From a virus: a stretch of DNA of 47,146 nucleotides. Made by a program: the position numbers and the translations under genes. Below are positions 1 to 44,712 of this stretch, in pieces; within the stretch, counting starts at the first letter, position 1; every line of letters begins with the position of its first letter. The stretch is taken from the UHGV virus genome UHGV-1361989; one strand, written 5' to 3'. Below the pieces are notes generated by a model. That model searched no databases. It saw only the letters and a program-made list of their open reading frames with translations, and was not told the origin of the DNA.

Positions 1-1785
1 CTGCAAAGTGAAGTTGATGCACTTCGTGAGAGGTATCTTAGCTTCACTCCTGCCGCGCAAGAGGTGGCTGAGTCACTTGGTCAAGGGTCGCAATTTGCTT
101 CTGATCAGGAAAGGGTGCTCAATGAATTAAATAAAAAATCAAGAGATTTAGCTGATGCTCAGGATAAACTAGCAAGAACTCAGGACACGGCAGCAGAAGC
201 AAGCAGAACCCTAACAAACAACATGCTTACCTCAATGGGGGTGCACGATGGTCTGATTGAGAAAGGCTCGACTCTTGAGAGAGTGCAGGGGGCGGTGGCA
301 AGAGCATTTGGATTGACTGCCGATGAGATAAACAGAGCAAACCAAGCCGGGCAAAACTTCAACCCCAAATCCTTGCAGGTGTCAGCCCCAACAAAAGAAG
401 CTGATAAGATGATTCTCAGTCTTGAGGAGCAGAATCAGCTTTTAAAAATACAGGATGAAAGACAGAGGGCGGTAACAAAAGCACGACTGGAGGCCCAAAA
501 GGTAACTGATAACCCCAATCAGATAGCCAGGGCTGCTGAACTTGCAGGACAGATATATGATTTGAATGAGGCCGAGAAAGCAAGGGAAAAATCGCAAAAT
601 GATTCTCAATCAGCGGCCCAAAAAGCCGCCACAGAGCAGGAGAATATCGCTAATAAACTTGAGCAGTTACGACAAGAATCCTTATTAACAGCAGATAGCA
701 CAAAAGAGCTATCCCGCGAGCAAGCAATACTACAGGCTCAACAATCACTAGGAAAAGGCGCTACAGAGGAGCAAATAAGACTCGCTGGAGAGTACAAGGC
801 TAAGGCATGGGATAATGCCAACGCGATAAAGGCTCAGGCAGAGGCGGAGAAACAAAGGGTAGAAGCTGTAAAAGGATTCGCTGCATTAAAATCGCAGACA
901 TCACCAATGTTTGCCGTTGAAACAAACTATCAGAAGGATTTAGCAGCGCTCAATGCTTATGCGGTGGCTTACCCGCAAAAGATAGCGGAGGTTGAGCAGG
1001 CCAGAGCAGCAATTGAGGAGCAATACCGCCAGCAGCGCCTCGATGCCATGTGGCAGGAGTGGAGCCAGCAGAACGCGGCCACACAAGCGGCCGCTGCTGC
1101 ATTTGATGCTTTTGGGCAAACCGCAAGCAACGCCTTAACTGGCGTTCTGACTGGCTCAATGTCTGTTAGCGAGGCGCTACAGTCAATAGGGAGTAATGTG
1201 TTAAATGCGGTTATTAACTCCTTCGTTCAGATGGGCGTAGAGTGGCTTAAATCGGTAATTATGGGACAGGCAGGGATGACTGCGGCATCAGGGATGGCTG
1301 CAGCCCAAGCCCAAATAATCGCAGCGGCTATGGCGCCAGCAGCAGCGATGACATCACTTGCTACGGGTGGCGCTAACGCAGTACCTGCACAGGCTGGCAT
1401 TGTTTCCACCGTCGGTGTGGCTAAAGCAATGTCTGTTGCCGGGGCATTAAAGAATGGCGGCCCTGCGCAGGCTGGATCAATGTATCAGGTCGGCGAGAAC
1501 AACCTACCTGAAATCTTCCAGGCCAGCAATGGCAATCAGTACATGATACCTGGCGACAATGGAAAGGTTATAAGCAACAAAGACCTTACCGGTGGTGGCA
1601 GTGGTATCATTATTTATAATAATGTCACCAATAACAGCAGCGGAGCAACGGCCTCATCAACAGCAAGAGATAATGGTGACGGCTCTGTTACAATTGAGAC
1701 TATCGTTGCCGACATAGAAAATGGCGGCCCTATTTCTCAGGCTATTACCAGCAACACTACTGCAACCAGAAGGGCAACAGAATAA
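1..1785 (+). CDS. tail tape measure protein, C-terminal part (reading frame enters from before position 1; contiguous in frame with ORF leaving window at 47146)
   Basis: Open frame from nt 1 with no stop until 1785. Ala/Gln-rich coiled-coil repeats followed by Gly/Ala-rich hydrophobic segment. Sits immediately upstream of minor tail genes. Confidence 0.75.
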   Translation: MQSEVDALRERYLSFTPAAQEVAESLGQGSQFASDQERVLNELNKKSRDLADAQDKLARTQDTAAEASRTLTNNMLTSMGVHDGLIEKGSTLERVQGAVARAFGLTADEINRANQAGQNFNPKSLQVSAPTKEADKMILSLEEQNQLLKIQDERQRAVTKARLEAQKVTDNPNQIARAAELAGQIYDLNEAEKAREKSQNDSQSAAQKAATEQENIANKLEQLRQESLLTADSTKELSREQAILQAQQSLGKGATEEQIRLAGEYKAKAWDNANAIKAQAEAEKQRVEAVKGFAALKSQTSPMFAVETNYQKDLAALNAYAVAYPQKIAEVEQARAAIEEQYRQQRLDAMWQEWSQQNAATQAAAAAFDAFGQTASNALTGVLTGSMSVSEALQSIGSNVLNAVINSFVQMGVEWLKSVIMGQAGMTAASGMAAAQAQIIAAAMAPAAAMTSLATGGANAVPAQAGIVSTVGVAKAMSVAGALKNGGPAQAGSMYQVGENNLPEIFQASNGNQYMIPGDNGKVISNKDLTGGGSGIIIYNNVTNNSSGATASSTARDNGDGSVTIETIVADIENGGPISQAITSNTTATRRATE

Positions 1786-2255
1786 TGGCTATAGCTTATC
1801 CATCATGGCTACCGCTTGCGCAGCGTGCCAGCAAGAACATGACGACTCAAACCCCATTCCGCAGCGATCAGCCTGCGGTTGGGGCGCCAATATTTCAAAA
1901 GTTAACGACCGATGTTGCAGTAACATGGAGTTTGACATGGGTTTTCACGCTCAGGCAGGAGCGGGCATTTATGCAGTGGTTGAGAAGCCCAAATTATCTC
2001 AACAAGTGCAATGAATGGTTCACGATGGATATCGATCTTGGTGGTAGCGGATTACAGAATCAGACTTTGCACTTTACTGATTACCCCGTACAGACAAGTA
2101 TCAATGGCGGCATCGTTACATGGACTGGAAATGTCATCTGTAAAACTCTCAATAACTCCATGGATGAATTTGATGATGTGCTTGTTGAGCTTGATGAGAG
2201 ATGGTATTCATGGCTTGATGAAGTCGTTAACAGGGATTTGCCGGAGTATCCATAA
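1785..2255 (+). CDS. minor tail protein (position of lambda gpM)
   Basis: ATGA stop/start overlap with tape measure gene. Synteny TMP-M-L-K-I/J. Confidence 0.45.
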
Positions 2256-2725
2256 TGCCAACATTGCGTGAATACCAGTCAAAAAGGCCAAACTGGAAGC
2301 TGTATGACACCATAACCTTTTATCATTCTTCATTTGGTTACGTCCGGCTAGTTGGCAATGAGTTTTCTGATATTGTACTTGGCGGCCAGACTTACCAGCC
2401 AGTGCGCATGGATGTAACCAGGAGCCAGCAATCGAACACACCGGTAATCAATGCCACGCTAAAGTTTGCGAGACTGGCTAATGACTTTAAGCAATATTTA
2501 AAGTTATGGTCAGGGTCTGGTCGTATTGAGCCTATCACCGCCCTATACCAACGCTTTGATGAGACTGACAAAGACGCACCATTAAAACCATATACGCTTT
2601 ATGTAAATGATGTGACGCTTGATCAGTCTGATGTAACTGTCTCCATCTCCATAAAAAACCCAATCAATGGCAACGTGGCAAAACTTTATGACATCACAGA
2701 ATTCCCAGGACTGCGTACCGTTTGA
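2255..2725 (+). CDS. minor tail protein (position of lambda gpL)
   Basis: Start overlaps previous stop. Synteny only. Confidence 0.4.
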
Positions 2726-2741
2726 CGATTTTGAGTGGTTG

Positions 2742-3146
2742 ATGACTGGAAAGCCATACGTTGACAGATGTTGTCATGTTGATGCAGTGGACTGCTGGGG
2801 TCTGGTAGTGCTGTTCTATCGTCTTTGCATGAATGTTAATGTCCATCATGATGATTCATATTCAAATGGCGGCGATTTTGTCACTTGTTTCAATGGAGAA
2901 ATTTCATTCTGGAAAGACACAGACCGGCCAAAAATTGGCGATGTGGTGGTTGCATATCGCGGGAGTCACCCGGTACATGTCGCGCTGTGGTGGGGTCGTG
3001 ATAAAATACTGCATGCGCGAGAGAAAACGGCAGTCAAGACAGACCGCCTTAAAACACTCGAAAAATTATCAACAAAATTAAGGTTCCTGACTTATGCCGG
3101 TTATTCACATTCAGAAGATGCCAGGTGTTCCAAAAGAGACGGGTAA
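2742..3146 (+). CDS. tail assembly protein K-like, NlpC/P60 peptidase fold
   Basis: Motifs DCWGLVV (Cys) and HVALWW (His) typical of NlpC/P60 / gpK. ORF-track start 2667 trimmed to the ATG after the upstream stop. Confidence 0.6.
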
Positions 3147-5574
3147 TGTTCCTGCTGGCACTAATCTGTGGAGATGGCTGGAGAATTCCGGTCTTCCATC
3201 TGACATCAGGATTGCACTGAATGGCCGCATTTTTGGCCCTGATGATGAATTGTCGATATCGTTAAAGCAAAACGATATTGTTAACATTTACTGTCAGCCT
3301 CGCGGCGCCATTGGCGACCTTATCAGCACGATACTCAAGCCTGTAACTAAGGTTCTTTCTTTTCTGCTGCCAAAAGCATCAACGCCATCAACCAGCACTG
3401 GCACGACGGTTGAATCACCCAATAACAGCCTGAAATCGCAAACCAATATTGCGCGAAATGGAGAGGCAAGACCTGACAACTTCGGTCAGATAAGGGCATT
3501 CCCTGACCTGATTCAGGAATCTCTTTTTGAATACATTGACGATTTGAAGTACGTCACAGAGTTCATGAATTTTGGCCTTGGGAAATACACCATTTCATCG
3601 GTTAGATATGCAGAAACAAACCTCGGGTCTTTACCCGGTGCCACTCATGTCATCTACAATCCAGGTGATGTGATAGGGCAAATCATTGAGCCTTACCAGT
3701 TCGACGGACTTGATGGTCAGGAGGTTTTAGGGCTAAACGAGTCAGAAGATACCCCGATAGAGACGGCAACCACAACATCTGTTACCAGTGGGAATTATGC
3801 TGGCGGTCAGCTATTAATGGTCATACCAAAAAACACTGATTTCGATTACTTTATGGGACTATCTTTGCCTCACTCCGTATCATTAACAATAAATATTACC
3901 TACAACTCTACATCAGGGCCAGTTACTGAAAACATTCAGCTTAGTGGCAACATCATTTCAGCTGAGGAAACTGAGACAGGCGTCATTCCTGATATTCAGT
4001 ATTTTTATAATTTCACATTCAATAACCTGACTGGCGCAAATCTTGGCAACCTGACAGGCGCAACCATCAACAACACTTATTTCCAGATTGTGGATAATGA
4101 GGCGCTTGTTGTTGGCCCATATGTTGGAGCTGTGGAATCAACGCAGGTATGGGTTCATGTTCAGTCTGAGCTTGGTCCTACCAGTGGCACGGCAGATTAC
4201 CTGATCAAGGTATGGGCGGTTGATGATAATGGGGATGCCATTCCAGGAACCGAGGAGCAGCTTGCAGACAGTATTGACAACCCATTCAATCAGACAACCA
4301 AAACCTATTATCGCACGTATAAGTTAACTCCTGCTTATGGGTTGGCTAAGTATGCCATCAGCATTGAAAGGACAAACAACTCAAACTCTGGCAACCGCGT
4401 AACGTTGCAGGCGGCGCACGCCATCAACATCCGCGAGAATGTAGTTTATCCTGATGACACCCTTGTTAAAGTCACGGTGAAGGCCACGCTTCAGCCCACA
4501 TCAGTTACTGAGCGCAAATATAATGCGCTGATCACCCGCTGGACTATCGGATATAACAGAACAACCGGGACAGTAGACTATACGTTAACACCATCAAGAA
4601 GTTTTGCAGATTCAGTGCTGCATAACTGGCTTATTACTGCTGGTCAGCCTGAAAGCACGATTGACGTGGGAAGATTATATGAAATAGCTGATGCGCTGCC
4701 TGATGAGCGTCTTGGGTACTTTGATTACACCTTTGACGATGAGGATAAGTCCATTGGTGAGCGAATCCAGACCATCTGTGATGCCGCTCGCGTAACTGTA
4801 TTTTGGGATGATGGCGTCTTGTCTTTCTCAAGAGATGAGCAAAAATCAACCCCTGAAACTGTGTTTAATACCAGAAACACGCAGGCTGATGGCTATAAAA
4901 TGTCTTATGACATGACTTTGCCAGGCTCATATGATGGCGTAAGCGTTCAGTACCGTGATCCAAACACAAACAAGCAGGCTTACGTTTATTATAAAGTTGG
5001 GGCATCTGGTATCGAACCTGGAGAGCCAACTAAGCCGAAAAAATTCGACATGCTATATGTTCGAAACCTGTATCAGGCAACAGACAGGGCTATGCTTGAA
5101 TGCAATCGCCTCATGTACTCTCGTCGTGGAATGGAGATAAAAGCGCTTGCCGATGGAGAGTGGGTGAACGTTGGCGATATGATTTCTGTTGTCGACATTT
5201 ATGATTCTGTACAGCAGACTGGCGTTATCCGATCAAGGTCTGGAAACGTATTTACCACCAGTGAACAGCTCACAGCAGGAAGCGGCCTGTTTGTGGTCAT
5301 CACTGGCGCCAATGGGAATGTGTCAGAACTCCTGGCTTGTACCGTTACTGGATTGAATACATTCGAGTGCGCATTACCATCTGATTTCGAGTTAAACATT
5401 TTTGACGGTGTTAATGTTCAGTCAGAATCAAGATATGCCATCTCCACAGAGGTTGAGCTTGATTCAACATTATGGACAGTCAGCCAGAAAACTCCAGGCA
5501 CAGATGGTACAGTCTCACTTACTGTAACTGAGTACAATGATGCCATGTACGCCTACACCAACCCTGTTGCATGA
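3094..5574 (+). CDS. distal tail / central tail fibre protein (lambda J-like), N-terminus with gpI-like beta-grasp segment
   Basis: 826 aa, Thr/Asn/Gly-rich beta-structure. Position after K-like gene. RBS aagg upstream of ATG 3094. Confidence 0.55.
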
Positions 5575-5603
5575 TACAATAGGGCAATTAATGATTATGG
5601 AGA

Positions 5604-7769
5604 TTGCAGCCGATGGCTACTACCCCAACTAACAAGCCAATTCCTTCTGAAGACCCGCGCGACCTCAAGTTTAACGCCGGTAAGATTGATGAAGAGGTTA
5701 ACGGAAGTTCTGATTACTACACCGACCGATTTGACGCACAGAGGCTGACTAATACCGGCAGGAATCACCAGTTTCAGACAGCACAAGATGAGCGTGAGGC
5801 AGAATTTGTTGCGTCACAGGTGGATAAAGAAGCGCGTTTTCAGCAATTCCTCTTAAATTCTGGTTATCAGTTTTTGGGAGATTATGAAAATGGGCCATAT
5901 ACAATAACGGCGCTTAACCAGGTAATTCGTTATCAGGGTGAATTCTGGCGCTTAAACGCATCAACAACACCTCCATATACAACTACAGGGATTGATAACA
6001 CCTCTTGGGCGGTAGATGTGACCCATCTTGTAAGCGTTGGTGATGCAAAATTAAGACAGGATTTAAGTTCAACTACTTTGCCTGGTTTATCATTAGTCGG
6101 TCTTTCTGGTAATGGTAATTTAAACCATCTGCTAGGCAATCATACCTCTCCTGAGGCGTGGGGAGTGGTGCCAAATTCAGAAGCATCAGCTCATGCAAAC
6201 TCTAGAAAGATGTTTGACATGTTTGAAAGTTTAAGATCGAAAGGCGGCGGTGTCGTATTCTTTACTCCTGGTAGAACATACTGGATTGACTTTATTCAGT
6301 TCGTACCAAGTAACGTTGTTATAATTGGCTACGGCGCTACATTAAAGCAAATAAACCCTTTATCAATGTATGGACGCGGTGGTTTTGTGTTTGGTAGCAG
6401 TAGGGAATGGAACTATCAAAAAGCTAAAACGGCATATCTTGCAAACTCCTACCCTGCATCTGTATCTGATTCATCAATGCCTGAGTTGTCTTTAGGTTCA
6501 TATTTAAGGGATAACCAATCATATTTACAGTGTGAAAGATGTACTGTGTATGGTTTGCGTATGGAAACAAAATTTACAGATTCTACATATTGGGGTGGTT
6601 ATGCATTTAATACAGTAAACGCGCAACACATCAGATTTTACGATGTTAAAGGAAGTGGTTGGACACAGCTATTCAATTTCGGTAATGATAGTTCCGCATC
6701 ATCACCATCTTGTGATGATGTATATGCATTCAACTCAACAGTAGAAAGCGCAGATCTTGTTCGTTCTTACTATGCGATTGGTTTTATAGCCAACTCTACA
6801 AACTGTGGTTTTGATACAGCGGTTCTTCTAAAACCAATGACAGTTGATAGCATTAATGGGTCTGGTGCAGCAACAAACCACACTGAAAACTGCGTAATCA
6901 GAAATATAAACATACCAGATTTAGGGTTAACTTCATCATCTGAAGGTGTTTTATTAAATAACTCTAAAGGTTGTTTAATAGAAAATATTGATATCAGGAA
7001 TTGTAAAAACGTAGTTAGTACATACTATACCGTCGATTCATACAATGACACTGCAAAACCTAATATTTTAAGGAATATTAGTGGTCAAGGCGTTAACATT
7101 ATAGCAATCAGGTCTAAATATGCACACATTGAATCATTTGAAGGAGTAGGTACATACACGAATGAAGTTCAATTTGCAAACAACAATGCATCAGGCAATA
7201 CCATAAATAAAAAACCAAAATCAATTGGTTTTGGTGGGACTAACTTACAGTCATGGTTTTTAACAAATAATACGGTAAAAGGATGGTCGCGAAAATATTT
7301 TTATATTCGGCCATCCGAAATTTTGTTGAACGATAAAGTAGACACTTTTTCATGGAATTATAATAAACTTGTCGCAACAAAATCAGGAGTAAATCTTTAC
7401 TTTATGTGGCGAGTTCCTGACGATATCAATGCAATTGATGATATTCGCGCTTTTATTAGATTTAACACTGCCGTAGATCAAGATGCTTCTGTTGCTGGAT
7501 CTACAGTAGAGGCAAGTTTGATACAAATGGTCGCTTTCGATGGTAACATTGGTGAAACACCATATGTTGCTTTTTCAAACAGCAAGATTGCAACAGCGGG
7601 TGTAGAAGACACAACGGTAGTAACGCAAATGGGTAGCAATGTACCAGGTTTGGTTTATATGGATGATACTACACATGGTTTATCCTATAGCTGGTATGTG
7701 CTGTTTAAAATGACAAATAATGTCAACAATAACTACATGAAAGAAATCAGAGTAGCGGGGTATAACTAA
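5604..7769 (+). CDS. tail fibre / tailspike with beta-helix receptor-binding domain (possible polysaccharide depolymerase)
   Basis: 721 aa. Conserved-looking N-terminal anchor, then Asn/Ser/Gly/Thr-rich repeats typical of right-handed beta-helix. Coding DNA is markedly AT-rich relative to rest of genome. Confidence 0.55.
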   Translation: MQPMATTPTNKPIPSEDPRDLKFNAGKIDEEVNGSSDYYTDRFDAQRLTNTGRNHQFQTAQDEREAEFVASQVDKEARFQQFLLNSGYQFLGDYENGPYTITALNQVIRYQGEFWRLNASTTPPYTTTGIDNTSWAVDVTHLVSVGDAKLRQDLSSTTLPGLSLVGLSGNGNLNHLLGNHTSPEAWGVVPNSEASAHANSRKMFDMFESLRSKGGGVVFFTPGRTYWIDFIQFVPSNVVIIGYGATLKQINPLSMYGRGGFVFGSSREWNYQKAKTAYLANSYPASVSDSSMPELSLGSYLRDNQSYLQCERCTVYGLRMETKFTDSTYWGGYAFNTVNAQHIRFYDVKGSGWTQLFNFGNDSSASSPSCDDVYAFNSTVESADLVRSYYAIGFIANSTNCGFDTAVLLKPMTVDSINGSGAATNHTENCVIRNINIPDLGLTSSSEGVLLNNSKGCLIENIDIRNCKNVVSTYYTVDSYNDTAKPNILRNISGQGVNIIAIRSKYAHIESFEGVGTYTNEVQFANNNASGNTINKKPKSIGFGGTNLQSWFLTNNTVKGWSRKYFYIRPSEILLNDKVDTFSWNYNKLVATKSGVNLYFMWRVPDDINAIDDIRAFIRFNTAVDQDASVAGSTVEASLIQMVAFDGNIGETPYVAFSNSKIATAGVEDTTVVTQMGSNVPGLVYMDDTTHGLSYSWYVLFKMTNNVNNNYMKEIRVAGYN

Positions 7770-8038
7770 TGACCGGTTCAGAATCAAGAAAAGCACAAGA
7801 TCTCTTCTTTGGTATTATTGATTATTACGCTAATCTTTCAGGCACAGACATAACTGAAGATCAGTTGAAACAACGCGATGAAATAATAAAAAGTGGATCT
7901 ATAGAATGTGATGATTCTTTAGATAGTGAAATCTTAGATTTGCAAGATCAATTTCTTGCAAAAAAAGAAAGTAACATCATAAATAAAGATCAAATAGCGA
8001 TAGTTGAAAAAGCACTATCGCTATTAAAAAAATCTTAA
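7769..8038 (+). CDS. hypothetical acidic protein (possible fibre chaperone)
   Basis: ATGA overlap with fibre gene. AT-rich like the fibre. No recognisable motif. Confidence 0.3.
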   Translation: MTGSESRKAQDLFFGIIDYYANLSGTDITEDQLKQRDEIIKSGSIECDDSLDSEILDLQDQFLAKKESNIINKDQIAIVEKALSLLKKS

Positions 8039-8054
8039 TTATCATACTGGTAGT

Positions 8055-8090
8055 AACGTGCATCTCATTTGATGCACGTTATATTTATTT
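8055..8090. terminator. bidirectional rho-independent terminator between convergent fibre and SSB transcription
   Basis: Perfect inverted repeat AACGTGCATC / GATGCACGTT with 6-nt loop, followed by ATATTTATTT. Confidence 0.6.
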
Positions 8091-8097
8091 AAATCAC

Positions 8098-8601
8098 TCA
8101 GAATGGGATATCATCATCAAAATCCATCGGCGGTTCGTTTGACGGTGGTTTTGACGTGTTTGATGGTTGCTGAGGTTTACCCCATCCTGATTGCTGATTA
8201 CTTCCTGACTTTTGCCGCTGCTGTGACTGTTGGTTTCCATTATCACTTGATTTACCACCAATCATTTGCATAACGCCGTTCATAGGCTGCAAGACGATTT
8301 CAGTAGTGTATTTTTCAACACCGCTTTGATCTGTCCATTTGCGAGTACGTAATTTTCCTTCTACATACACCTGAGAGCCTTTGCGCAGGTATTCGCCAGC
8401 CACCTCTGCCAGCTTTCCGAAGATAACCACGCGATGCCATTCTGTCTGCTCTTTCTTTTCCCCTGTTGCTTTATCGTTCCACTGCTCTGATGTTGCCAGA
8501 GACAGATTGCACACAGCGCCGCCAGAAGGCATATATTTAACTTCCGGGTCTTGTCCGAGAGTGCCCAAAATGATTACTTTGTTGATTCCTCGAGATGCCA
8601 T
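8098..8601 (-). CDS. ssb: single-stranded DNA-binding protein
   Basis: OB-fold N-terminus, Gly/Gln-rich linker, C-terminal acidic tail ending DDDIPF. Confidence 0.95.
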
Positions 8602-8610
8602 AATTTACCC

Positions 8611-9651
8611 TTAAAAGTTTTCGATGTTCTGTTGAGATGTTGATGGCTTCTCTTCGTTTGCAGATGACGTAGGCGCATCTGCTTTCTGGAGTTTTGCCGG
8701 GTTGAAATCGTCCTGCGGTGTGATAGTTACCGCTGCTGGCGATTCATCATTAATGAATGACTCAATGCGCTCATACTCTTCTGCTGATGCCTTCAATGTA
8801 GGCCAGATTGCGCGAATTTTTGCTTTCACTGAATCAGGCAAGTTAACTGCCTCGGCAGTTAGCGCAGCAACTCCTTTTGACGCCGTCATTTGAAGTTTAG
8901 AGCGCCAGTGCTCAAACTCTTCGTCGACCTTGACACCTGAATCCACCCATTTAATTAAACCTCGCCCATGAGCTTCGCCTAAGTATCCTTCGTGTACACT
9001 ATCACGGCCTGAATCAAAGAAAATTGGGCGCAATTCTTCTGGTAGCTTGGTAAATTCCTGAATTTTTCCATTATCATACATCATCATGCTTACTGTCATT
9101 TCAAACATAAAATCTTTTTCGCATACAGCATGCAATCCGAGGGATTCAGGTTTCTTGGGGTTTTTAAAGCTCGTTTTCTCTCTGGCGCGTAAACATACAA
9201 TGATATGCATATTGCTCTGCAAAAGAGCGCTCATGAATTTTTTATGTTCAGACTTAGCTCGCTTCCAGTCTGCCATTGCCTTACCCTGCAATAGTGGTTG
9301 CTCTGCAATATCATTGCATCCTCCTTCACCTTCCCATTCGTGCGATCCTGAATCAATAACCAGAACCTTAACGCCTGCCTCCTGAAATTCCTCGATAGCC
9401 TGGCGGTAACGAGCTGGACTAAATGGCGCATACAAATCAGCGTGCATAAATGGACCGTCAAGCTCTCCAGAATAAAGCCTGCCTCGACCATTTTCAGAGT
9501 CAAGAAATCCAATTTCTTCTGGTTTATTAACCATACCTCGCGCCATCTTTAGTGCCGTAAGTGTCTTTCCACTACCAGACTGCCCTGAAATGCCAATCAC
9601 TACGCGAGAACCTGAGCGCTCTGCTGGCTTAATGTTTAAAATACCCATCAC
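8611..9651 (-). CDS. RecA-like / AAA_24-type ATPase (Sak4-like recombination-associated)
   Basis: Walker A GISGQSGSGKT near N-terminus. Adjacent to SSB and PD-(D/E)XK nuclease. Confidence 0.6.
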   Translation of the reverse strand: MMGILNIKPAERSGSRVVIGISGQSGSGKTLTALKMARGMVNKPEEIGFLDSENGRGRLYSGELDGPFMHADLYAPFSPARYRQAIEEFQEAGVKVLVIDSGSHEWEGEGGCNDIAEQPLLQGKAMADWKRAKSEHKKFMSALLQSNMHIIVCLRAREKTSFKNPKKPESLGLHAVCEKDFMFEMTVSMMMYDNGKIQEFTKLPEELRPIFFDSGRDSVHEGYLGEAHGRGLIKWVDSGVKVDEEFEHWRSKLQMTASKGVAALTAEAVNLPDSVKAKIRAIWPTLKASAEEYERIESFINDESPAAVTITPQDDFNPAKLQKADAPTSSANEEKPSTSQQNIENF

Positions 9652-9671
9652 TTCACCTCATTTACTATAAA

Positions 9672-10628
9672 TTACAGGTTAAATTGCTTTTTGAACCATT
9701 CTGGCGTTTCCATTTCGATGACCGGATTACCCATTGAGTAACCGGGCCATGAATTGGCTTTTTTGCATGCCTTATAGATTTCCATAGCGCTGCGCAGCTG
9801 AATGCGGCCAATACGTAACTGCTCATCCGTCAGGCGAATCAGCGCAGGGATGAATGGCGATTTCTTCTCCTGAACCAGGAGGTTTACAGATCGAGGTGCA
9901 TGCCCATAAGCCTCTACAAACATGTCGTGCTGCATTGCCATTTTCATAAAGTACCCGAGCCGCGCTGCATGGCGGAAAAACTCATCAGGCTTGGCGCTAA
10001 CCGCTGTTTTGTAGTCAATAATGTCGCCACCGCGAGTAAGACAGTCAAAGCGTACCTTTGATGGTTCGCCAAGCAACTGACCGAGAATTGACACCTCGGA
10101 ATAAGCACCAGAAAGCAGACTGCTGTAATAGCTGTTTGCATGGATTACGGCGCGCATCTGCATGATAGCGTCATAATCAGTTCCATCAAGCATATGCTTA
10201 CCAGTAGCGGACTTCTCTGCCTCTTCTCGGATAACATCGTAAATCTGCACTGGCTCGCCAGTGGCCTGAATAATTTTAATCACTTCGGCTTTAGTCTTAC
10301 CTGAAAGACCTTTGATGCCTCGCTCTTTCGCCCATGAGTTCATGTCAGAAGCAGTTACCAGCACCGTGCGATTGCCATCTTTGTCTTTTGGAAAATCTTC
10401 GACAACTGGCATGCGGGCATATTCTGCTTCGAAGCGCTCAGGCTCAAGCAGTGCGGTATGGCTACCAGTACCAAATATCAGAGCCTTTGACTGCTCATCT
10501 TCTTCGTCTTTGTAGCGCCACGCTGCCGGGCAGCGGTCATAGATGTTCCACAGGCCAGAGCCGTTGATGTGCTCGGTGTCAGCGTGGTAATCATGATTGC
10601 TTAATTCATTGTTAAAGTAAACCTTCAT
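9672..10628 (-). CDS. PD-(D/E)XK family exonuclease (Cas4/RecB-like)
   Basis: Motif GGDIIDYKT (D-x-K catalytic motif) near C-terminus. Recombination module context. Confidence 0.65.
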   Translation of the reverse strand: MKVYFNNELSNHDYHADTEHINGSGLWNIYDRCPAAWRYKDEEDEQSKALIFGTGSHTALLEPERFEAEYARMPVVEDFPKDKDGNRTVLVTASDMNSWAKERGIKGLSGKTKAEVIKIIQATGEPVQIYDVIREEAEKSATGKHMLDGTDYDAIMQMRAVIHANSYYSSLLSGAYSEVSILGQLLGEPSKVRFDCLTRGGDIIDYKTAVSAKPDEFFRHAARLGYFMKMAMQHDMFVEAYGHAPRSVNLLVQEKKSPFIPALIRLTDEQLRIGRIQLRSAMEIYKACKKANSWPGYSMGNPVIEMETPEWFKKQFNL

Positions 10629-10631
10629 GAT

Positions 10632-11135
10632 TCACCGCCTATAAAATTCCTTAAAATTAACTCGCCTAAATTCCTCTGCGGCATTTTTAGCATCCTCAAT
10701 TGATGAGTATCTGCCAAGATTTTTCATCTTTCCATTTATTCTTCCGTATGCCATCCACTTCTTGTTTCTCTTGTCCCAATAAACACCCTTTACGCCAGAG
10801 GTGTTATTTTTAAACATACCTTTGTTAAAGGAACTCTCCGACTTGCTTGCAAGTCTTAAGTTTTTTATTGAGTTATTGCTTGTATTTCCATCAATGTGAT
10901 CAACAATCATTCCATCAGGAATTTCACCGTTAACATACGTCCATATGAATCTATGCAATAACCATTTTCTCCTTCCGAATGAGATAGCTTTATATTTCGC
11001 ACCTCCTCTTGAGGTAATTTCATGTTTATGAATTGCAGAATCACCTGCTTTCGCTAATCCTCTACTCTTTCTCCAAAAAATAGAGCCTTCATCAGCATTA
11101 ACAATAAGCCATTCATCTACATAATATTTATCCAT
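10632..11135 (-). CDS. HNH homing endonuclease with AP2 DNA-binding domain
   Basis: VDHIDGNTSNNSIKNLRL (HNH_3) plus SGVKGVYWDKRNKKWMA (AP2). Paralogue of 20240, 21387, 32584, 44227. Confidence 0.85.
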   Translation of the reverse strand: MDKYYVDEWLIVNADEGSIFWRKSRGLAKAGDSAIHKHEITSRGGAKYKAISFGRRKWLLHRFIWTYVNGEIPDGMIVDHIDGNTSNNSIKNLRLASKSESSFNKGMFKNNTSGVKGVYWDKRNKKWMAYGRINGKMKNLGRYSSIEDAKNAAEEFRRVNFKEFYRR

Positions 11136-11177
11136 ACAACACCTCTTTGGTATTATTGGATTGTAAGGTGGTATGAA

Positions 11178-11594
11178 TTACTTGTCAACTCCAAAATAGA
11201 ATAACGTCGCTCTTTTTATCTCCTCAAGACCATAAGCAATGGCTCCAAAGTGACCCTCTGCAATGGCGCACTCAAGAACATCAATCTGCGATGGCGATAC
11301 TTTTGATTTTTTCTTGTCGCGCCTCTTCAGTTCAATCAGGCCGCATTTATGATTAATGCCGTTGGTTAGTATCACGTTGTCGCTTACGCCGCTCCTGACG
11401 CCCATCTTGCGGCGTTTTTCGACGAATTGCGGGCCGCTCTTTGTGCCGGTCTCATTTGGAACATGAAACCACAGAGCATCAGGAAAACGGTACTGCATCC
11501 ACAGACCATACGCCATCTGGTCAGTGCTTTCCAGCGGACACTCCCCACGATAACCGCTATCAAATACCCATATCCCACTATCAAGCTGCTTCAA
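11178..11594 (-). CDS. VRR-NUC domain nuclease
   Basis: GVSDNVIL ... IELKRR ... SPSQ spacing matches VRR-NUC D/E-x-K core. Confidence 0.65.
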   Translation of the reverse strand: MKQLDSGIWVFDSGYRGECPLESTDQMAYGLWMQYRFPDALWFHVPNETGTKSGPQFVEKRRKMGVRSGVSDNVILTNGINHKCGLIELKRRDKKKSKVSPSQIDVLECAIAEGHFGAIAYGLEEIKRATLFYFGVDK

Positions 11595-13496: not shown

Positions 13497-14270
13497 CTAT
13501 GGCATGTCAGGCCAGTAAACGTTGCTCTTAGATCTGTTTTCGCTTGGAGTTAACAATTGAAGGTTATGCCAGCAGTGAAGACCGCAAACCAACTTGCTAT
13601 TTATTGGAACAATATGGTCAACGTGCATTCCAAGACTGGCTGCCATTTCATAAACCTTCTCTATCAGAACCCTTTCAGATTCGAACCAAGATGGAATTGA
13701 CCTTCTTTTTAGATATTTATATTTACGCTGGTGATATCTAACAATATTTTTATTTTCAGCCCTCCAGTGTCTTGATTGCTCATTGTGCTTATCTTTGTTT
13801 TCATTGTAATACTTCTTTGATTTTGCCTTTATCTTGCTCTTATTTGCTGCGTAATTACTTTTCTTGAACTCTGATTGGCACTTCTTACATTCAGGCCTAA
13901 GACCATCAAGTGATGATTTGTTTTTATTGAAGTTTTCTTCATTTGCATCAAGAACTGAGTTGCATTTAGAGCAGACCTTCCTTCCATCAACAAGATATCT
14001 CAGCCTTTTACCTTTGTTTCCATCGCATGATTTACAATGAGATTTTAAACCAAGCCTCATCTTCTTGTCTGAGTAGAAGTAATCACTTGTTGCAGGAAGC
14101 ATTAGATTGCATCTTGAGCATTTCTTTTTTGTCCCTGTGCTTTCGCAACCTGCACTTTCCTGAGCAACATTTTGCTTTTGCAGTTCCGATAAACTCACTT
14201 CCGCAAACCTCGCATTTCTTAACGGTGATAGCCATTTCTTACCCTCTATTGTAACGGTTAATTGTTTCAT
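13497..14270 (-). CDS. HNH endonuclease with N-terminal CxxC zinc-finger repeats
   Basis: Repeated CxxC pairs. C-terminal HVDHIVP...N..LLT..ENRSK HNH core. Confidence 0.75.
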   Translation of the reverse strand: MKQLTVTIEGKKWLSPLRNARFAEVSLSELQKQNVAQESAGCESTGTKKKCSRCNLMLPATSDYFYSDKKMRLGLKSHCKSCDGNKGKRLRYLVDGRKVCSKCNSVLDANEENFNKNKSSLDGLRPECKKCQSEFKKSNYAANKSKIKAKSKKYYNENKDKHNEQSRHWRAENKNIVRYHQRKYKYLKRRSIPSWFESERVLIEKVYEMAASLGMHVDHIVPINSKLVCGLHCWHNLQLLTPSENRSKSNVYWPDMP

Positions 14271-16953: not shown

Positions 16954-17165
16954 GAGATCCTTCTGATGGTGAGGATTTCTTTATGGTTGTCAAAACGTGT
17001 GATGAACATCATGCCAGCATCCTTTGAAACTTTGGAAAGGTTCATCCTGAATCTTGCTATGTCCATGCCAACTATCTCGCTTGACGGCAATAGCTTAACT
17101 TCATTGACATTAATGCCAGATACGTGATGGTAAACGTGAGCCAAATCGCTGCCAGGTCTGTACAT
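16950..17165 (-). CDS. hypothetical early protein
   Basis: Perfect SD AAGGAGG 5 nt before ATG. First gene of leftward operon. Confidence 0.5.
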   Translation of the reverse strand: MYRPGSDLAHVYHHVSGINVNEVKLLPSSEIVGMDIARFRMNLSKVSKDAGMMFITRFDNHKEILTIRRIS

Positions 17166-17262
17166 AACTCCTCCTTATTTTTTGTGATTATAAAATATTA
17201 AATAAATCGGCGCAATACCTTACCTGCTTGTTCACTGGTCGTGCTTCTGGTTGAAATGGGTA

Positions 17263-17295
17263 AATTTGGATAAGCGTTTGGATAAGTGTTTTTAA
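17263..17295. repeat. tandem direct repeat TGGATAAG(C/T)GTTT x2
   Basis: aaatttGGATAAGCGTTTGGATAAGTGTTTTtaa read directly. Confidence 0.5.
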
Positions 17296-17606
17296 ATACT
17301 ATGTATATGTATTTACTACTATTATTATCAATAGATAGTAGTATTTATCCAATTCAACCCATTTTTTGCTTTGCGCAAATTTTAGCAAAAAAAATGCATC
17401 AAAAATTTTCTACTTTTCTCTCATGGTGAAGGTTTAAGTGATAAATGGTTGAACATTACATAAGTTAATGAATTTACATGGTTATCTATGGTTAAACCAA
17501 AAAAAATCTTGGGTTAAATGGGTTGAGCGTGTTCTATATATATCAACAACTTGCAAAATTGATAACTGTAAGTGATTACTAACTAAATTTTATTTTCACC
17601 ATCATA

Positions 17607-43969: not shown

Positions 43970-44230
43970 CTATTCCTCACTAATCGCAGCATCAAGCTGG
44001 CGTCGCAACATGCACAGCGCACCGCGTGGCATTGCCTGGCGACTCACGCCGTCGAAAATCTTCCGGTTGAGGTGATTGGTCACTCGCGGCCTGATAGCCT
44101 GCCAGCACGCCTTAATGCTGCCATTTACCGGGCGGCGCTCGAGCATGGCGAACTTTGCAGATAGTTCCAGCGTCACCAGTGCATCAAGGTATTGCTCGCA
44201 GGCATAGCGATTTTCGTTATCCATCATCAT
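43970..44230 (-). CDS. hypothetical protein
   Basis: 86-aa ORF coupled to HNH gene. Confidence 0.4.
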   Translation of the reverse strand: MMMDNENRYACEQYLDALVTLELSAKFAMLERRPVNGSIKACWQAIRPRVTNHLNRKIFDGVSRQAMPRGALCMLRRQLDAAISEE

Positions 44231-44712
44231 TTACCATGGTTCTCATGAAAATCATACTTAACCTCCGCCTTTCTCCTTGCTTCAGCGGCCATATTTAAGT
44301 CAGAAAACAATCCAAGATGAATCTTTACGCCATCAACTTTTATGTTTGAGGCCCATTTTTTATGTTGTTTATCCCATGAAACACCAGTAACACCTGATTT
44401 GTTTGTCACCCTGAACTTCATGTTGTGATTATTCTCTTTTGGAGTGACAAGCCTGAGGTTATCTATCTTATTGTTTGTTTTATTGTGGTCTATATGATCA
44501 ATCTGCATTCCGTCAGGAATTTTCCCATTATGCATTTCCCAGATGATGCGATGAACAAGATACTTGACGCCATAGATTCCAACAATCTTATATCCATTGC
44601 CTCCTACCGCCTTCACCTCGCTTCCGATTTTCACTCTGTTTGAGGTTCTTATCTTCCAGTAAATAGCCCCATCACAATAATAAAAAATATCTGACCAATC
44701 AGTTATTTTCAT
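44227..44712 (-). CDS. HNH homing endonuclease with AP2 domain
   Basis: IDHIDHNKTNNKIDNLRL + SGVTGVSWDKQHKKWASNI + NHGK. Confidence 0.8.
   Translation of the reverse strand: MKITDWSDIFYYCDGAIYWKIRTSNRVKIGSEVKAVGGNGYKIVGIYGVKYLVHRIIWEMHNGKIPDGMQIDHIDHNKTNNKIDNLRLVTPKENNHNMKFRVTNKSGVTGVSWDKQHKKWASNIKVDGVKIHLGLFSDLNMAAEARRKAEVKYDFHENHGK

Follow-up and report, generated by a model that had tools for sequence, protein, structure and literature searches.

A horizontally exchanged, AT-rich tailspike body and its small companion gene on a conserved anchor in a Roufvirus-type siphophage

The DNA considered here is the virus genome UHGV-1361989 (47,146 nucleotides (nt), called the window throughout), in which a tailspike gene is followed, with overlapping stop and start codons (TAATG), by a small open reading frame (ORF) for an 89-amino acid (aa) protein, ORF89. 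The genes upstream of the spike make up a tail tip of the lambda/Sf11 type, and downstream lies a convergent gene for a single-stranded DNA-binding protein (SSB). Over 3000–9000, Aeromonas phage pIS4-A and Vibrio phage pYD38-A, of the genus Roufvirus, match the window at 99.7% identity, and ~70 further relatives, mainly Klebsiella siphophages, are available for comparison. We hold, with considerable confidence, that the phage is a siphophage of the Roufvirus type and that positions 5613–8038 encode its receptor-binding apparatus, built from a resident anchor and a mobile unit that comprises the spike body and ORF89. The features on which this reading is based are collected in Table 1.

Table 1. 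The tailspike locus and its flanks in the window (positions in nt; dot, no strand)
Feature	Positions	Strand	Basis or remark
Distal tail protein with adaptor helix, putative spike docking site	1785..2255	+	Homology to Sf11 gp17
Baseplate hub 2/J-like tail tip protein, conserved left flank	3094..5574	+	Sf11 gp14, phrog_469
Tailspike gene	5613..7769	+	718 aa from ATG 5613; ORF opens at TTG 5604 (721 aa)
N-terminal anchor, aa 1–150, conserved tail-docking module	5613..6062	+	Sf11 homology; 44.6% GC
Hinge/linker, aa ~146–185, main recombination junction zone	6046..6167	+	Homology ends; dip in model confidence (pLDDT)
Right-handed parallel β-helix body, aa ~186–555, predicted polysaccharide depolymerase	6168..7277	+	AlphaFold2 model, Foldseek
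C-terminal region, aa ~556–718: low-confidence linker (aa 572–581), then predicted β-sandwich	7278..7766	+	AlphaFold2 model
ORF89, acidic 89-aa protein, predicted four-helix	7769..8038	+	Start overlaps spike stop (TAATG)
Hairpin plus T-run between convergent ORF89 (+) and SSB (−)	8053..8082	.	Terminator scan, RNA fold
SSB gene, conserved right flank	8098..8601	−	Homology to sister phages

Translation of the spike most likely begins at the ATG rather than at the TTG that opens the frame, because a GGAG motif is found at 5598–5601, 11 nt upstream of the ATG, and because the equivalent ATG is annotated in relatives. In the RefSeq record of pIS4-A (NC_042037) the spike is started from an internal ATG (6220–7770, window 6219–7769), which gives a protein of 516 aa from which the anchor is omitted; the pIS4-A frame is intact from the ATG equivalent to window position 5613. 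Spike residues 107–721 match phrog_14442 ("tail protein," E 3e-248), and the N terminus matches other PHROGs.

The N-terminal part of the spike has its clearest counterpart in phage Sf11. Residues 1–175 align to residues 1–155 of the Sf11 tailspike gp13 in PDB entry 9OCC (phmmer E 1.2e-21); the first ~45 residues are near-identical, and R16 and K19 are kept. The same structure accounts for the neighboring proteins, as residues 3–154 of the distal tail protein (1785–2252) align to residues 4–155 of Sf11 gp17 (E 9e-89), the product of 2255–2722 matches Sf11 gp16, and residues 1–822 of the hub protein align to Sf11 gp14 (E = 0). In Sf11, residues 4–59 of three spike chains form a bundle with a single adaptor helix of the distal tail protein, with K19 and R16 of the spike salt-bridged to E129, E136, E147, and E152 of the distal tail protein, and each tail bears six spike trimers (PMC12724387). 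The equivalents of E129, E136, and E147 are kept in the adaptor helix of the window, and E152 is replaced by D. By homology to Sf11, the first ~150 codons would thus specify the resident part of the spike, with N-terminal helices that would bundle with the adaptor helix, a docking geometry that we infer from the alignments and that, by analogy, would place six spike trimers at the tip of the tail. The entire tail tip of the two phages is homologous (distal tail protein, gp16, gp14, and spike N terminus), and both have a hinge after the anchor. They differ, however, in what the anchor carries: the Sf11 body is an O-antigen endorhamnosidase of the Sf6/P22 type, unrelated to the body of the window spike, and a homolog of ORF89 is not reported there. 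In addition, Sf11 gp17 has 457 aa, including a C-terminal extension of ~300 aa, whereas the distal tail protein of the window has 156 aa and lacks this extension.

Beyond the hinge, the AlphaFold2 model of the spike (mean predicted local distance difference test score (pLDDT) 87.2, and above 90 across aa 190–555) shows a β-helix that Foldseek matches with probability 1.0 to the tailspikes and depolymerases CBA120 TSP3 and TSP4, AM24, HK620, Depo32, DpK2, and KP32gp38. The body is 35% identical to Dep_kpv79, an experimentally validated K57-specific hydrolase, and among its acidic residues E265 and D359 are invariant across 27 homologs, and E425 and E444 are almost so. The extreme C terminus, ending in KEIRVAGYN, is kept in homologs from Escherichia coli, Klebsiella, and Erwiniaceae. 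As modeled, then, the body is a β-helix tailspike of the depolymerase type. Its most likely role, by analogy with the nearest validated enzyme, Dep_kpv79, is cleavage of a receptor made of capsular polysaccharide or exopolysaccharide, by which it would determine host specificity. Sister phages are capsule-specific at this locus (KpV2811 for K1, KlebP_265 for K2, and H122 for K57), and these specificities, together with the literature on relatives, suggest that exchange of the body would alter host range.

ORF89 is a real gene: it is under purifying selection (ratio of nonsynonymous to synonymous substitution rates, 0.04–0.44), and AlphaFold2 models it confidently as four helices (pLDDT 87.6). 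The product is hydrophilic, with an isoelectric point of 4.4, and matches phrog_19895, a family of unknown function. Its relatives form a small family (27 clusters at 90% identity and ~18 at 50%, among 1.84 billion representatives), of which all members are stand-alone proteins of 76–97 aa. In every one of 20 other contexts, drawn from at least eight lineages, an ORF89 homolog comes directly behind a homologous spike, with a start that either overlaps the spike stop codon or lies within 4 nt of it, and the junction sequence GCGGGGTAYAAYTAATGACYGGTTC is kept across four lineages. The identity of ORF89 between genomes tracks that of the spike body (r = 0.92, 45 pairs, not independent). Searches for remote relatives returned little: Pfam and NCBIfam contain no matching family, a sequence search of the PDB gave just a chance coiled-coil match (E 0.5), and a Foldseek search of the PDB with the model gave none at E ≤ 0.001, the top matches being generic helical bundles. 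The sole structural match in BFVD is an uncharacterized family member that adjoins the spike of phage KWBSE43-6. The products of three small ORFs that stand behind other bodies, F14 gp72, KP591P1 gp06, and KpV79 gp43, were tested as relatives of ORF89 and are not related. The region of the K57alpha1.2 match (H65) was left out of these comparisons because its annotation could not be used.

Several kinds of homology, taken together, establish horizontal exchange of the receptor-binding cassette. In eight sister Klebsiella phages, which carry other bodies, both flanks are 86–96% identical to the window (86–94% for the hub gene DNA), and all DNA similarity is lost across the body. At the protein level, about 90 database entries share just the first 153–189 residues of the spike, at 72–90% identity, and clustering of the regions past residue 200 in 100 anchor-sharing proteins yields 38 unrelated body types. 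Conversely, the same body is found behind unrelated N termini in an E. coli prophage (72% identity), in Klebsiella pneumoniae prophages (59% and 36%), in an Erwiniaceae prophage (59%), in the Jedunavirus JD001 and the Drulisvirus KPV811 (44–45%), and in the Taipeivirus KWBSE43-6 (36%); it is present also in metagenomic myoviruses, bringing the number of phage and prophage lineages to eight or more. One body is therefore joined to many anchors, and one anchor to many bodies. Individual genomes tell the same story at finer scale. A metagenomic siphophage (L010) is 75–97% identical to the window over 5840–8050, and 82–97% in the cassette, compared with 45–72% in the flanking tail and replication genes and the backbone. 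In Klebsiella phage VR6602, identity is 33–73% over 5730–5850, 100% over 6030–6750, 78–93% over 6750–7590, and ~100% past 7590. Prophage-like IMG/VR contigs from unrelated phages have only 6149–7924 or 6149–7951 in common with the window, at 69% nucleotide identity. The initial annotation of the window, made from its sequence alone, had proposed a horizontally exchanged receptor-binding or depolymerase body joined to a conserved anchor, and the modular distribution, L010, and the predicted fold all bear this out. Neither the general phenomenon nor the docking structure is new. Horizontal exchange of depolymerase domains among the modular receptor-binding proteins of Klebsiella phages is well documented (PMC6872550), mosaicism has already been described in this phage group (PMC11769527), and the Sf11 docking structure and the genome itself are public. 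What the present analysis adds are the precise junctions, an AT-rich codon usage that appears to belong to the cassette and to move with it, and an unstudied small partner gene.

The left junction can be placed by where similarity ends. Among seven sister phages with other bodies, DNA similarity to the window stops at 6046–6065 in F14, MK54, ZCKp20p, and VLCpiS13d, and earlier in KpV2811 (5655), VLCpiS13e (5761), and KP591P1 (5898). Protein matches confined to the anchor end at aa 153–165, and those confined to the body start at aa 158, 179, or 203–212. The main junction is therefore the hinge, aa ~150–185 or nt ~6046–6149, with secondary breakpoints at 5655, 5761, and 5840–5898. It coincides with a linker of low model confidence (pLDDT down to 56–69 at aa 141–180) and with the hinge described at residue 162 of Sf11 gp13 (PMC12724387). 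A recombination point near 5900, after about 100 N-terminal residues, had been suggested at the outset; a breakpoint is indeed seen in the relatives, but it lies near 5900 only in KP591P1 and L010 (~5840–5900), and in most cases falls further downstream, in the hinge.

On the right, DNA similarity is regained at 8057, 8084, or 8098, and in MK54 at 8123. At 8098, the SSB stop codon, homology restarts to four of the eight sister phages that carry other cassettes, at 93–96% identity. Just before it, within the right junction zone, the hairpin at 8053–8082 has a 12-bp stem (−19.6 kcal/mol, z = −6.0) and is a probable bidirectional terminator. A promoter scan of 5000–9000 gave 12 sites versus 11.7 expected from shuffled sequence, and we claim no internal promoter. 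These boundaries suggest that a body-plus-ORF89 unit (nt ~6050/6150 to 8050) is exchanged by recombination, with the left crossover falling within the hinge-coding region and the right crossover at the convergent terminator and the SSB stop codon. The mobile part would then consist of the flexible hinge, the β-helix depolymerase body, the C-terminal β-sandwich, and a translationally coupled ORF89.

The same region stands out in base composition. The window as a whole has a G+C content (GC) of 46.8%, compared with 36.4% for 5900–8038, 34.6% for 6400–8097, and 30.0% for ORF89. Among 1698-nt windows taken genome-wide (mean 46.7%, standard deviation 3.7%), the spike region lies ~3.3 standard deviations lower, with the scan minimum at 6401, and a two-change-point likelihood fit over 3000–11000 finds a low-GC block at 6500–8120 (log-likelihood gain 30). 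Most of the drop falls at third codon positions, where GC is 0.268 in spike codons 264–718 and 0.18 in ORF89, versus 0.39–0.72 in other long ORFs and typically ~0.45–0.55. An AT-rich composition of ~5900–8040 and a preference for codons ending in A or T had both been read by eye from the sequence, and the measurements confirm them: the profile is far from flat, and this is the lowest-GC stretch of its size. Within it, GC descends gradually, at 40–44% across 5800–6400 and reaching ~29–40% only past ~6400. The start of the gene does resemble the bulk genome, as first described, but over ~450 nt (5613–6065, 44.6% GC) and not ~300. The spike cassette is the largest of several low-GC regions in the window.

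Why the cassette is AT-rich admits of two answers. We favor a codon usage that would be foreign to the backbone and would travel with the cassette into other genomes; alternatively, AT-richness could be intrinsic, imposed by a β-helix rich in Asn, Ser, Thr, Ile, and Lys or by selection for AT-rich codons in late genes. The intrinsic explanation is consistent with GC at first codon positions (0.40 in the body versus ~0.52), with an amino acid composition that predicts a GC content ~3 points below that of the J-like gene, and with the finding that, in almost all genomes examined, the homologous cassette has a lower GC than its surroundings, a possible sign of a shared constraint. In Roufvirus-like phages and in prophages of the E. 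coli type, the body has 36–37% GC against 44–53% in the backbone; the figures are 46% against 54–58% in K. pneumoniae prophages and 44% against 51% in JD001. GC at second codon positions, however, is unaltered in the body, at 0.41. Moreover, when the codon usage of the genome is applied to the amino acid sequences, the expected GC is 44.7% for the body and 41.7% for ORF89, against 35.7% and 30.3% observed, so that roughly 9–11 of the ~12 GC points lost are synonymous and due to codon choice, and amino acid composition is ruled out as the sole cause. Alternative bodies in sister phages, which share both locus and expression context, have 41.6–49.5% GC; the low GC therefore belongs to the cassette type, and a general property of the locus is ruled out. 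Nor is low GC obligatory for the cassette, which has 48% in KPV811 (backbone 52%) and 50% in another genome, L035 (53%), and exchange is shown by homology evidence that is independent of composition. We consider an intrinsic origin very improbable. A foreign codon usage also has difficulties of its own. A search for a donor among low-GC phages found only a cassette of 46% amino acid identity, at 2140–4261 of a myovirus-like metagenomic contig of ~35% GC (ENA ERZ27300242). In this contig the spike has 33% GC and the small ORF 29%, close to the backbone, so that a low-GC phage pool holding the cassette does exist, but at 46% identity the contig is not the direct donor; the nearest relatives of the cassette outside Roufvirus (72–74%) are in backbones of 44–53% GC. 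Furthermore, the GC step at ~6500 is displaced 350–450 nt to the 3′ side of the homology junction at 6046–6149, and is 3′ to every other homology junction as well. The 5′ portion of the body may have ameliorated or been overwritten in a later recombination event, or the cassette may be uneven in composition for some other reason. Composition alone would therefore mislocate the junction by several hundred bases.

Similar questions attach to function, both of the body and of ORF89. Rather than a capsule depolymerase, the spike could be a non-enzymatic binding fiber, or it could target O-antigen or another glycan. Close homologs occur in prophages of E. coli, Pantoea, and Erwiniaceae, whose glycans are unlike Klebsiella K-antigens, and the Sf11 spike, with the same type of anchor, targets O-antigen (PMC12724387). 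Two observations count against a depolymerase: a search of Pfam and NCBIfam with the window spike matched no family, and hence no Pfam lyase or hydrolase model, and Dep_kpv79, the nearest characterized enzyme, is just 35% identical. The pectate-lyase or tailspike fold expected by the initial annotation accordingly stands as a predicted β-helix tailspike fold but not as a curated sequence family; the pectate-lyase assignment comes from the predicted fold and from homologs (P0030, P0047, and the L035 spike) that carry PF12708. On the other side, the conservation of the four acidic residues of the β-helix, the homology of the body to a K57 hydrolase, and the K1, K2, and K57 specificities of sister phages at this locus argue for a capsule depolymerase, and we regard the other options as quite unlikely. 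For ORF89, we tentatively suggest, by analogy, a role as dedicated assembly partner of this spike body; it may act as a folding or trimerization chaperone or as a transient cap. This is the weakest link of our account. It draws on association, that is, on linkage between genes; the correlation of 0.92 is inflated by non-independent pairs and speaks to linkage rather than interaction, ORF89 has no sequence or fold homology to known chaperone families (Caudo_TAP PF02413, T4 gp57A), and behind the 35%-identical spike of KpV79 an unrelated 94-aa ORF takes the place of an ORF89 homolog. ORF89 could instead be a hitch-hiking moron, with a role in anti-defense, superinfection exclusion, or regulation, that is retained since the pair recombines as a block. 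Its properties would suit such a gene, as it is small and acidic, stands last before the terminator, and exceeds every other gene of the window in AT content, and the want of chaperone homology and the KpV79 arrangement fit a moron as well; moreover, a linked "chaperone" is dispensable in Alteromonas phage A5 (PMC10579305). Yet the linkage holds in at least eight lineages of varied morphotype and lifestyle, down to ~36% spike identity and always with overlapping stop and start codons or a gap of no more than 3 nt, no member of the family (~18 clusters at 50% identity) was encountered away from this type of spike, and the family occurs in the strictly virulent Drulisvirus and Taipeivirus, where morons of the lysogeny type are unusual. 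A moron is on balance rather unlikely. The assembly partner remains our preferred role, and ORF89 with its relatives of ~80–95 aa may constitute a hitherto overlooked family of trans-acting partners for one widespread lineage of β-helix depolymerase tailspikes.

Comparison with known systems places the cassette among the Klebsiella depolymerases, whose receptor-binding proteins are composed of an anchor, a central β-helix, and a C-terminal domain (PMC6872550; DepoCatalog, PMC13385381). The window spike has the same three-part architecture, and in both the anchor is retained as enzymatic parts are swapped horizontally. In Dep_kpv79, which is homologous over the body, the domains span residues 1–183, 184–554, and 555–721, nearly the boundaries of the window spike. 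The window spike differs in that its anchor is Sf11-like rather than T7 gp17-like or T4 gp10-like and in that it has no intramolecular chaperone domain. Closer still are three gene pairs, gp66/gp65 of JD001, gp02/gp01 of KPV811, and gp210/gp209 of KWBSE43-6, which represent the same two-gene cassette. Their bodies are 36–45% identical to that of the window, and an ORF89-family protein comes directly after the spike (hidden Markov model E 3e-28 and 2e-23; Foldseek template modeling scores 0.72–0.78). In contrast to the window, these pairs sit on other attachment modules and in other virion types (myovirus, podovirus, and Ackermannviridae), the GC of the cassette is nearer to that of the backbone, and the small ORFs are annotated as hypothetical only. 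A variation on this arrangement is found in K. pneumoniae CP029722, where two tandem pairs of spike and small ORF occupy 2661–4912 and 8001–10456 of one chromosome region; the gene before one pair encodes a lambda-like J protein, and the other pair comes after baseplate genes of the Mu/P2 type and Caudo_TAP genes, which suggests adjacent or hybrid prophages.

The behavior of ORF89 calls to mind the trans-acting chaperones of phage fibers. T4 gp57A is a small, acidic, all-helical protein. The general view of β-helix tailspikes, by contrast with fibers, is that they fold without help or by means of a C-terminal intramolecular chaperone, and to our knowledge the known trans-acting chaperones serve fibers, not β-helix tailspikes. 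Like T4 gp57A, the Tfa/Caudo_TAP proteins, and the corresponding proteins of phages V22 and A5, ORF89 is encoded by a small gene that lies immediately downstream of, or is dedicated to, a trimeric receptor-binding protein and that is co-transferred between unrelated phage families. The resemblance is one of gene position and behavior only, as these chaperones share neither sequence nor fold with ORF89. In the Alteromonas phages V22 and A5, chaperones form "caps" on the fibers, and modules of fiber plus chaperone are shared among Alteromonas phages (PMC10579305). In the literature searched on receptor-binding proteins we found no discussion of ORF89-type ORFs or of a trans-acting tailspike chaperone.

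The spike body would decide which capsule or surface glycan, and hence which strains, the phage can attack. The junctions, at the hinge (aa ~150–185) upstream and at the convergent terminator downstream, should be useful to phage engineers who wish to graft specificities. Published catalogs and domain-swap schemes handle the spike as a single-gene unit. If ORF89 is needed for assembly, it should be included both in recombinant production of the depolymerase and in cassette-swap designs, and the unit of horizontal host-range exchange would be a two-gene cassette of body and partner rather than a protein domain. Some tailspikes would then need a separate helper for folding, trimerization, or capping, a need thought typical of fibers and not of β-helix spikes.

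Some minor observations concern the remainder of the window and its relatives. Besides the spike cassette there are shorter AT-rich islands at 10632–11135, 13497–14270, ~17000–17500, and 44227–44712. The first, on the minus strand, is an AT-rich homing-endonuclease gene (HNH_3 plus AP2, 35.7% GC), and the last, also on the minus strand, is a second AT-rich HNH_3 endonuclease gene (37.7% GC) with a weak AP2 match. Between them, 13497–14270 (minus strand) is a 257-aa ORF of 37.9% GC without a Pfam family, and ~17000–17500 is a stretch of ~500 nt at 31–34% GC with short ORFs only. Mobile genes tend to account for the low-GC islands of this genome. Phage pIS4-A lacks the HNH_3 plus AP2 gene at 10632–11135, the gap in homology extending over 10629–11184, so the window is not simply pIS4-A.

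The recorded hosts of pIS4-A and pYD38-A are Aeromonas sp. IS4 and Vibrio sp. YD38. The remaining relatives are nearly all enterobacterial phages, most of them of Klebsiella and the others of Citrobacter, Escherichia, or Salmonella, and the spike is 92% identical at the amino acid level in Klebsiella phage KpnS_VR6602. The recorded Aeromonas and Vibrio hosts of these near-identical genomes look doubtful. Upstream of the spike, an NlpC/P60 gene (lambda gpK-like, 2667–3146) and the 826-aa hub gene share ~50 nt at the start of the latter, and the hub protein has been described as a gpI-like part fused to a gpJ-like one (PMC11769527). On the other flank, the gene adjoining SSB (8611–9651, minus strand) encodes a 346-aa AAA_24 protein in the window. 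In KpV2811, VLCpiS13d, and a metagenomic relative (L014), it is replaced by a gene for a 219-aa ERF-type annealing protein, homology to the window stopping at 8709; this gene is likewise exchangeable among the relatives.

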